36,641 bases of DNA from a virus (taxonomy: Duplodnaviria; Heunggongvirae; Uroviricota; Caudoviricetes). The notes under the pieces are model-generated. The model ran no database searches. It worked only from the letters and a program-made list of their open reading frames with translations, and was not told the DNA's origin. The translations under genes were made by a program, and so were the position numbers. Positions 35,293-35,961 of the stretch are shown in pieces. Location: positions 1 through 36,641 of the IMG/VR virus record IMGVR_UViG_2877285697_000003. One strand, 5' to 3'. Within the stretch, counting starts at the first letter, position 1; every line of letters starts with the position of its first letter.

Positions 35293-35961
35293 CTATTTTT
35301 TCCCTGAAGCGGAAAACATTACTACAGTACCTTGAACCTTGGTTTTAACATTCTCGAAATGCTCTGAGAGTATATGTGTTAAGCCTTCTTCGGAATCTTT
35401 TGTGTTTGAAAAGATGCCTTTCTGATTGTAAATGCGCATCAGTTTTTGACCGAAGCTATTGTGCACAACTCCATCGCCAAGAATTGTGGCTCCGTATAGA
35501 GTTCCATCATCAGTTAAGGCCTGCGCCGCATTGCGTATTACACAGCTTTTTGTAGATATATTTCCAGGCAGGCAGTGAAGAAGGTAAAACATGGAAATGG
35601 AATCAAATTGACCATGTAACGCCGCAGGATAAGGTTCAAAAACATCATGGCTAATTTTATGTTTAATTTTTGATTCCCCAGCCCTTGTAGATGCCGCGTT
35701 CAGGCTAGCTTCGTTCAAATCCATTAAAGATATCAGACTACTCTCAGGTACGTGAGTAAGGTAAAACCCAGTTCCAACACCAATATCCAGATGGTTGTTA
35801 CCTAAATGTTCCAGAAAGTGTGGAAGAAGGTGTTCCTTTGTAGGACATCCCCATGCAAGCCGATTTGATACTCCCAAAACCCACCAGTCATAAAGCTTTA
35901 GGGTAAGTGGTGTGTAAATTTTAGCCCCATCATCTGTGTTTTTTTTCATTAATTTCACCAT
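35293..35961 (-). CDS. Class I SAM-dependent methyltransferase (222 aa), AT-rich cargo gene
   Basis: Motif I HLDIGVGTGFYL and overall Rossmann-fold methyltransferase pattern; AT-rich relative to the flanking phage genes. Confidence 0.7.
   Translation of the reverse strand: MVKLMKKNTDDGAKIYTPLTLKLYDWWVLGVSNRLAWGCPTKEHLLPHFLEHLGNNHLDIGVGTGFYLTHVPESSLISLMDLNEASLNAASTRAGESKIKHKISHDVFEPYPAALHGQFDSISMFYLLHCLPGNISTKSCVIRNAAQALTDDGTLYGATILGDGVVHNSFGQKLMRIYNQKGIFSNTKDSEEGLTHILSEHFENVKTKVQGTVVMFSASGKK

Follow-up and report, generated by a model that had tools for sequence, protein, structure and literature searches.

ybcY, a common lambdoid-prophage cargo gene found next to ipaH, very likely encodes a small-molecule-type class I methyltransferase

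Lambdoid phages are known for their "morons", AT-rich and independently transcribed genes that are passively carried near the tail-fibre genes. In E. coli K-12, ybcY and tfaX lie side by side; a constitutive RpoD promoter, TTGATT-17-TATAAC, is listed for ybcY, and H-NS binding was reported in the spacer between the two genes ("ybcY < H-NS > tfaX") (Shimada et al. 2014, PMC3946193). In CFT073, UTI89, 536 and E2348/69, the distance between ompT and ybcY is 272 bp, according to work on uropathogenic isolates (PMC6854850). A ybcY mutant showed unaltered Hha toxicity (PMC2408971), which is the only phenotype statement that we found for this gene in the literature. Its Salmonella Typhimurium relative, STM1638, is described solely as a "putative SAM-dependent methyltransferase". 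A literature search for functional studies of ybcY, b0562, STM1638 or lambdoid moron methyltransferases returned none, and neither a substrate, a product nor a phenotype was found in the searchable literature for any member of the ybcY/STM1638 family.

Two leads from genetic screens were set aside. The gene tfaX was listed together with tam under itaconic acid (Rau et al. 2016), a listing that comes from an unvalidated Tn-seq loss-of-function enrichment in which the tam deletion went the opposite way; moreover, ybcY of K-12 is a pseudogene. For this latter reason, a kanamycin survival screen that names tfaX (PMC12924614) is also uninformative.

Here, we analysed a window of 36,641 nucleotides of viral DNA (IMG/VR record IMGVR_UViG_2877285697_000003), in which the minus strand of positions 35293..35961 carries a class I SAM-dependent methyltransferase ORF of the ybcY type, as assigned from its translation, Pfam, PHROG 2132 and an AF2 model. 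The ORF gives 222 aa from its ATG, with motif I DIGVGTGF at residues 59-66. Pfam matches are to generic class I families, of which four exceed their cut-offs, namely Methyltransf_12 (37.6 bits, cut-off 30), Methyltransf_23 (28.8, 27), Methyltransf_25 (27.7, 27) and Methyltransf_11 (24.6, 21.2). PHROG 2132 is matched over profile positions 1-218 of 218 (E=7.9e-157); its annotation in PHROGs is unknown function. Much of the first-pass annotation of this DNA stands. It had described a complete 222-aa Rossmann-fold methyltransferase with a DIGVGTGF motif, on which translation, Pfam and structural model agree, and had placed it in AT-rich cargo DNA that differs from its phage flanks. Indeed, the GC content of the gene is 40.5% (GC3 35%), whereas the window as a whole has 50.5% and the tail genes next to it have 53-63%. 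The gene does sit between ipaH (33334..34977) and a tfa fragment (36018..36287), and neither a restriction enzyme nor a helicase or biosynthetic gene adjoins it, in line with the orphan status that it had been given.

From nucleotide and protein comparisons, the gene is identified as ybcY of the E. coli K-12 DLP12 prophage. It is thus already named and annotated, extremely common, and an already-known prophage cargo gene. With high confidence, we read ybcY as a cargo gene of E. coli/Shigella lambdoid prophages encoding a soluble, single-domain class I methyltransferase of the type that acts on small molecules such as natural products, lipids or metabolites; it would be expressed independently and most likely act alone.

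The annotated start deserves a comment. A sigma-70-like promoter, TTGATT-17-TATAAT, lies directly upstream of the ORF at 35962..35990 (minus strand) and matches 10 of 12 consensus positions, this being a consensus match alone in a window where the promoter scan gave sigma-70-like sites no more numerous than expected by chance. Homologues outside E. coli all start at the residue equivalent to M5 (MKKNT...), and the sigma-70-like element ends one base before the annotated ATG; for these two reasons, translation probably begins at the ATG at 35949 (M5), which would give a protein of 218 aa. If the promoter is used, transcription would begin within the first four codons, which would also favour M5.

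At the other end of the gene, 5 nt past the stop codon, a strong hairpin (35251..35287) is terminator-like in both directions as judged by its folding energy (-23 and -24.8 kcal/mol; z -2.9 and -3.7); a simple terminator scan did not call it. Alignment with N47, phage 2G7b and K-12 places the left limit of the DNA common to ipaH-less prophages in the left arm of this hairpin, at about 35252. Divergent from the methyltransferase gene, the plus strand of 36018..36287 encodes a tfaX-like C-terminal fragment of a tail-fibre-assembly protein (Caudo_TAP positions 75-130 of 131), whose counterparts in the EIEC, N47 and K-12 loci are annotated "missing N-terminus", and beyond it lies a DinI-like gene. 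A second copy of the post-tfa hairpin with its flank is found at 36290..36341, 81% identical to 35272-35302 (direct repeat, inverted repeat). In ipaH-less prophages, a tfa 3′ end lies upstream of the first hairpin, where ipaH sits in the window. Given the second hairpin copy and this tfa 3′ end, the methyltransferase cassette is bracketed by duplicated tfa 3′ ends and hairpins.

The prophage around the gene is badly decayed, with several IS3-family and DDE transposases and with truncated gpJ and tail-fibre genes. Both the methyltransferase gene and ipaH are intact inside this IS-ridden remnant. In the window, metG and mrp also sit between phage fragments.

The gene is widely distributed in E. 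coli. Searching with the 669-bp gene by megablast, we found it at 95% nucleotide identity or more in 3,832 of 5,426 complete E. coli genomes (71%), with 1-4 copies in each. By tblastn, it is present in 15 of 50,697 phage records, all of them E. coli lambdoid phages, at 99% protein identity or more. In both E. coli genomes and lambdoid phages, the copies are always flanked by tfa remnants. An EIEC O121 strain, an isolate from CSF and an O157:H7 strain all have the identical protein, WP_000239881.1. The copy of K-12 MG1655 is 99% identical at the nucleotide level; it lies in DLP12 between tfa remnants, beside appY-ompT-envY. It is frameshifted, a state that K-12 tolerates.

Beyond E. coli, the family is large. 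A word-indexed search gave 2,296 relatives, an exhaustive search 1,320 clusters at E<=1e-3 (197 of them below 1e-30), mostly single-domain proteins 215-235 aa long that align over their whole length, and a scan of species-representative genomes 270 relatives. Relatives with 50-65% identity are found in Salmonella, Yersinia pestis, Proteus, Providencia, Erwinia, Pantoea and Pasteurellaceae, and also in the Pseudomonas syringae group, Xanthomonas, Dyella and Noviherbaspirillum; Aspergillus wentii and Acidobacteria have relatives with about 45%. The GC content of the gene equals that of its flanks in Pseudomonas, Xanthomonadales, Salmonella, Yersinia, Erwinia and Proteus, whereas it is 8-13 points below the flanks in E. 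coli, Enterobacter hormaechei, Klebsiella, Citrobacter, Providencia and Morganella. The closest relatives of the phage allele, from Citrobacter (90%) and Salmonella (88%), are on mobile DNA, where they sit beside dinI or on plasmid-like or IS-flanked contigs. Taken together, the pattern of GC match and mismatch and the mobile context of the nearest relatives point to an old resident gammaproteobacterial family, of which one low-GC lineage was mobilised and captured by E. coli lambdoid phages. As to a housekeeping orthologue with a known substrate, which the first-pass annotation had named as the observation that would speak against its proposals, resident chromosomal orthologues do exist, and none of them has a known substrate.

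Does such a gene still have a function? It could be a decaying passenger without current function, kept by linkage in fixed cryptic prophages, and the K-12 frameshift, the existence of shortened variants (a 161-aa form with 445 members and a 130-aa form with 30) and the many copies that lie in the ancient DLP12/ompT remnant all go in this direction. However, dN/dS values of 0.10-0.20 against the mobile Citrobacter, Salmonella and Enterobacter relatives show purifying selection and thus that ybcY is maintained. Moreover, the cluster of full-length 222-aa proteins counts 6,589 sequences, the identical protein is carried by functional phages, and the methyltransferase gene of the window is intact amid tail genes cut by IS elements. 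We thus hold the passenger explanation to be quite unlikely. The E. coli copies compared with the window differ from it by 0 non-synonymous and 3 synonymous changes. High prevalence in E. coli could nonetheless be due in part to hitch-hiking in the ancient DLP12/ompT remnant, not to selection for the enzyme.

The AF2 model of the protein (pLDDT 89.7, pTM 0.87) consists of a seven-stranded Rossmann core under two N-terminal helices, with only residues 1-15 disordered. In a Foldseek search against the PDB, the leading matches had TM-scores of 0.55-0.66 and identities of 13-21%. The top match was a phosphatidylethanolamine N-methyltransferase from Rubellimicrobium (8ys9, E=1.4e-11), followed by juvenile hormone acid methyltransferase, Plasmodium phosphoethanolamine methyltransferases, CysG/BelI and NodS, with the C-methyltransferase domains of CurJ and of citrinin biosynthesis among the further leaders. 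Overall, the fold matches, at 11-21% identity, are small-molecule, lipid and natural-product methyltransferases only. This bears on the class of the enzyme, which the first-pass annotation had proposed to settle by structure prediction: no DNA methyltransferase was among the listed matches of the fold search or of the sequence-profile search in the PDB. The protein has a pI of about 7 and no transmembrane or hydrophobic segment.

Across 51 homologues, 55 residues are invariant. They include D59, G61, G63, T64 and G65 in motif I. The N-terminal helices contribute Y16, Y24-D25-W26-W27, N33, W37 and C39; the stretch that follows beta-4 contributes Y126, H129 and C130; and the stretch that follows beta-5 contributes N168, Y178-N179, K181 and a GIFxN segment (G182-I183-F184, N186). 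D81, at the end of beta-2, and D106, at the end of beta-3, are conserved, consistent with a predicted role in SAM binding. On the basis of conservation and secondary structure alone, we infer that the invariant residues outside the SAM site form an aromatic substrate pocket.

The leading fold match raises the question of whether YbcY is a phospholipid or phosphoethanolamine N-methyltransferase of the PmtA/PMT type, remodelling the membrane lipids of the lysogen. Besides 8ys9 and the Plasmodium enzymes close behind it, the unusually aromatic set of invariant residues (W26, W27, W37, Y16, Y24, Y126, Y178) may recall amine-binding pockets. However, identity is only 15-16%, the protein shows no clear amphipathic membrane-binding segment (its 19-residue hydropathy peaks at 0.95), and the NCBIfam PmtA model NF045882 gives 15.6 bits where its cut-off is 390, which makes this activity very unlikely. 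The other NCBIfam equivalog models that we tried, CpaM and RquA, were likewise rejected, all being far under cut-off.

The first-pass annotation had also raised a role in phage counter-defence. A counter-defence or prophage-defence enzyme, acting through DNA methylation against restriction or through inactivation of an immune signal, would suit a phage-borne gene that is at least 99% identical among lambdoid phages and that sits in a variable cargo region. However, the protein has neither a DPPY-type nor a PC motif of DNA methyltransferases, its single "ENV" (residue 203) is outside any C5 context, and no target-recognition domain or other extra domain is present. Nucleic-acid methyltransferases lead neither of the fold searches. 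PADLOC gave no significant match to a defence system, mad2 alone appearing at E=0.0033 and 14.3 bits, which merely reflects the shared methyltransferase fold, and no defence partner genes were seen in the window or in related loci. In addition, the gene faces away from the lytic operons with a promoter of its own, as is typical of lysogen-expressed and not of early anti-defence genes, and most members of the family are non-phage chromosomal genes with host-like GC. We therefore regard a defence-related role as highly improbable.

The neighbouring ipaH gene had also led to the proposal of an effector-like role. This gene (33334-34977, minus strand) encodes NEL and LRR_TTSS domains, and its orthologue is annotated IpaHe; with its upstream region, it makes up an independent cargo cassette (33334..35250, minus strand) outside the methyltransferase unit. 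The sole MxiE box of the window, GTATCGTTTTTTTACAG, is an exact match at 35096-35112 (minus strand; 0 mismatches, 0 expected by chance). Since the methyltransferase stop is on one side of it and the ipaH start on the other, the box serves ipaH. Of the 5,426 complete E. coli genomes, 10 have an ipaH gene, which in 9 of them neighbours the methyltransferase gene. WP_000239881.1 also occurs without ipaH, in O157:H7, in the CSF isolate and in free lambdoid phages. In O157:H7, a stress cluster of Mn-catalase, ferritin-like, YciE/F and con-10 genes takes the slot past the ybcY stop codon, and in S88, N47 and K-12 this slot is free of additional cargo genes. In S. flexneri-type genomes, an insertion of about 1.3 kb interrupts the ipaH gene next to ybcY, and the methyltransferase is still 100% identical. 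Because the contents of the slot vary in this way, the methyltransferase gene is best seen as the constant element and its stop-codon-side neighbour as exchangeable cargo, the slot being an exchangeable cargo site that holds ipaH in Shigella/EIEC, Mn-catalase/YciEF in O157:H7 and no additional cargo gene elsewhere.

The adjacency of ybcY and ipaH is thus a rare coincidence without a functional link. An effector-like role, which the first-pass annotation had raised as a possibility from this adjacency, would mean that a type III secreted methyltransferase is co-delivered with IpaH and methylates a host-cell target. Such a role could be suggested by the position of the gene, 315 bp upstream of ipaH on the same strand and in the tail-distal cargo region where lambdoid prophages often bear effectors, and by the disordered residues 1-15, which would suit a secretion signal. 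It is made extremely unlikely by the presence of the gene in 71% of E. coli, K-12 and extraintestinal strains included, and of the identical protein in ipaH-less strains, a distribution not limited to a cognate secretion system; by homologues resident in the chromosomes of bacteria not known for Shigella-type secretion (Pseudomonas, Proteus, Dyella) and also in fungi; by the lack of a MxiE box in the promoter of the methyltransferase gene itself, the only box being downstream of its stop; by the strong hairpin between the two genes; by the disruption of ipaH but not of the methyltransferase in S. flexneri-type genomes; and by an N-terminus in which residues 16-52 are predicted to form invariant catalytic-lid helices and Ser is absent from the first 25 residues. 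Our result on ybcY therefore corrects a guilt-by-association reading of Shigella prophage cargo.

A partner gene was sought in the neighbourhoods of the family, for which ORFs were called and clustered in 85 loci; the methyltransferase gene was recovered in 78 of them, from 28 genera. No neighbouring gene is conserved across genera in these 78 loci, and the YbcY-family enzyme thus appears to act alone. Two local arrangements were considered and rejected as partners, as they do not extend to other genera: in Pseudomonas, a DUF6388 gene overlaps the start of the methyltransferase gene and crotonase and then CorA-like genes follow downstream; in Proteus, the neighbours are MliC-like and IbrA/IbrB-like genes.

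Some distant members of the family are found in biosynthetic settings. A relative with 38% identity is joined to a P450, and this fusion immediately follows a PKS AT-ACP-TE module, in a locus that also has a second P450 and a phosphopantetheinyl transferase; in a lichen-forming fungus, a relative with 50% identity over the matched stretches is fused to RCC1; and the Aspergillus gene is surrounded by esterase, flavin monooxygenase and acyltransferase genes. By analogy, the P450/PKS and Aspergillus contexts would fit small-molecule tailoring, the fusion partners (P450, RCC1) bearing on this at the level of the family only.

Altogether, we can propose the following scheme for ybcY as a solo small-molecule enzyme of the prophage. 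The gene lies on the strand opposite to the tail genes, has a sigma-70-type promoter to itself and is followed by a hairpin past its stop; it would be expressed as a separate unit of the prophage, with H-NS probably damping it, outside both the lytic programme and the ipaH/MxiE regulon. YbcY would bind SAM through motif I (D59-G65), D81 and D106, and would methylate a small cytoplasmic compound, probably hydrophobic or aromatic, at an O, N, S or C nucleophile. This compound would be held under the N-terminal pair of helices (Y16, Y24-D25-W26-W27, N33, W37, C39) and the segment that follows beta-4 (Y126, H129, C130). As no partner gene is conserved, YbcY most likely works alone on a common metabolite or a xenobiotic.

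A bolder version, which we consider unlikely, is that YbcY is a lysogenic-conversion enzyme that modifies or neutralises a specific small molecule of the gut or of the host cell, for instance an antimicrobial metabolite, a toxin, or an immune or signalling compound. If true, it would explain why most E. coli and Shigella keep a near-invariant intact allele, also where the prophage has decayed. More broadly, the ybcY/STM1638 family is widespread, is under purifying selection and reaches into fungi, and the identification of its substrate would annotate thousands of genomes.

How does the locus compare with described systems? Its nearest counterpart is ybcY of K-12 (b0562), which is the same gene in the same position between tfa remnants, with the same divergence from tfaX and the same promoter element. 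The -10 hexamer is better in the window (TATAAT) than in K-12 (TATAAC), the K-12 copy is frameshifted whereas that of the window is intact, and the stop-codon side of the gene faces the ipaH cassette in the window but a tfaD remnant in K-12. STM1638 of Salmonella Typhimurium and its stand-alone equivalents in Yersinia, Proteus, Erwinia, Pseudomonas and Xanthomonadales belong to the same family over their full length, with 50-65% identity and the 55 invariant residues. They resemble ybcY in encoding single-domain proteins of about 220 aa and in having no conserved partner; they differ from it in being resident chromosomal genes with host-like GC, whereas ybcY is phage cargo.

Among enzymes of solved structure, the best sequence matches are juvenile hormone acid O-methyltransferase (7ec0/7ebs, E=3e-5; no PDB entry scored better by sequence profile, and the match covers just the SAM-binding core) and UbiG (4kdc/4kdr, E=2e-3). 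Both are small-molecule O-methyltransferases that share the class I core with YbcY, at an identity of about 20% confined to the SAM-binding core (residues 42-142). Their N-terminal lid and the substrate region after beta-5 do not align with YbcY, so that no substrate can be inferred from them. The top fold neighbours, namely MM_2633 (3dtn), PsmD, SpnL, BelI, Coq5 and PmtA (8ys9), are 12-18% identical to YbcY; given this low identity and a flat ranking over unrelated substrates, the resemblance is one of fold class only. That the substrate is not readable from the sequence, as the first-pass annotation had stated, agrees with both comparisons.

Finally, lom, bor, ompT and the effector genes of Shigella and EHEC prophages occupy the same tail-distal niche as ybcY and follow the same logic. 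Their products are envelope or secreted proteins with known roles, whereas YbcY is a predicted cytoplasmic enzyme.

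The ybcY methyltransferase cassette is flanked on both sides by duplicated tfa (tail-fibre-assembly gene) 3′ ends and hairpins (window 35251-35287 and 36290-36341), and the slot on the stop-codon side of the methyltransferase gene is an exchangeable cargo site. In the window this slot is occupied by ipaH, while in O157:H7 it harbours a stress cluster composed of Mn-catalase, ferritin-like, YciEF and con-10 genes (locus L096, 1290-3503), and in S88 (L097), N47 and K-12 it has no extra cargo gene.

The minus strand carries an exact MxiE box (GTATCGTTTTTTTACAG) at window 35096-35112, some 120 bp ahead of the start codon of ipaH. 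The window has no second such box and chance alone predicts none, which implies MxiE/IpgC control of this chromosomal ipaH copy. The gene is unbroken in the window, and likewise in EIEC. In S. flexneri SFBU1023 and in both copies carried by “E. coli” ECMA0423, an insertion of ~1.3 kb, presumed to be an IS element, splits the ipaH beside the methyltransferase after residue ~204 (L009, L011 and L012, about 7597-8923); in ECMA0423 the entire ipaH-methyltransferase module is present twice.

Window positions 1-30600 form a mosaic riddled with IS elements, typical of Shigella-style genome decay. Besides an integrase, this region contains transposase ORFs of the IS3 family, at least four of them (1472-2149, 2525-3364, 6378-7196 and 16689-17507) plus an inverted copy (21757-22596), and one DDE transposase (26708-27949). 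There are also genes for terminase and portal, and then the housekeeping genes metG (17906-19948) and mrp/apbC (20041-21180), both flanked by phage fragments. After them come a DnaB-like helicase gene and a gpJ truncated at its N-terminus.

At three comparison loci (L003 4959-5096, L008 5919-6056 and L097 3919-4056), the RefSeq annotation has a protein of 45 aa, labelled “hypothetical” or “nucleocapsid”, on the strand opposite to the methyltransferase. This gene overlaps both the methyltransferase 3′ end and the hairpin, and is very likely a spurious call.

The Aspergillus wentii homologue (45% identity), an uninterrupted 669-bp ORF (L094/L095, 10001-10669) surrounded by esterase, flavin monooxygenase and acyltransferase genes, may reflect a bacterium-to-fungus transfer of the ybcY methyltransferase family. 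In Pseudomonas, the methyltransferase start shares ~8 bp with the gene for a small, acidic DUF6388 protein, an apparent case of translational coupling; this gene lies at 5711-6004 in L083 and at the corresponding place in seven further Pseudomonas loci. Downstream lie a gene for a crotonase-family protein of 230 aa and one that is CorA-like, and the order DUF6388, methyltransferase, crotonase, CorA-like is found only in Pseudomonas. Finally, in Salmonella the sRNA gene rydC lies directly downstream of the homologue STM1638 in the same orientation, between STM1638 and cybB (L004, 8663-8934) (PMC11340327, PMC2515195). The RydC sRNA activates cyclopropane fatty acid synthase, an enzyme that also methylates lipids with SAM as donor. 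The adjacency is probably coincidental.
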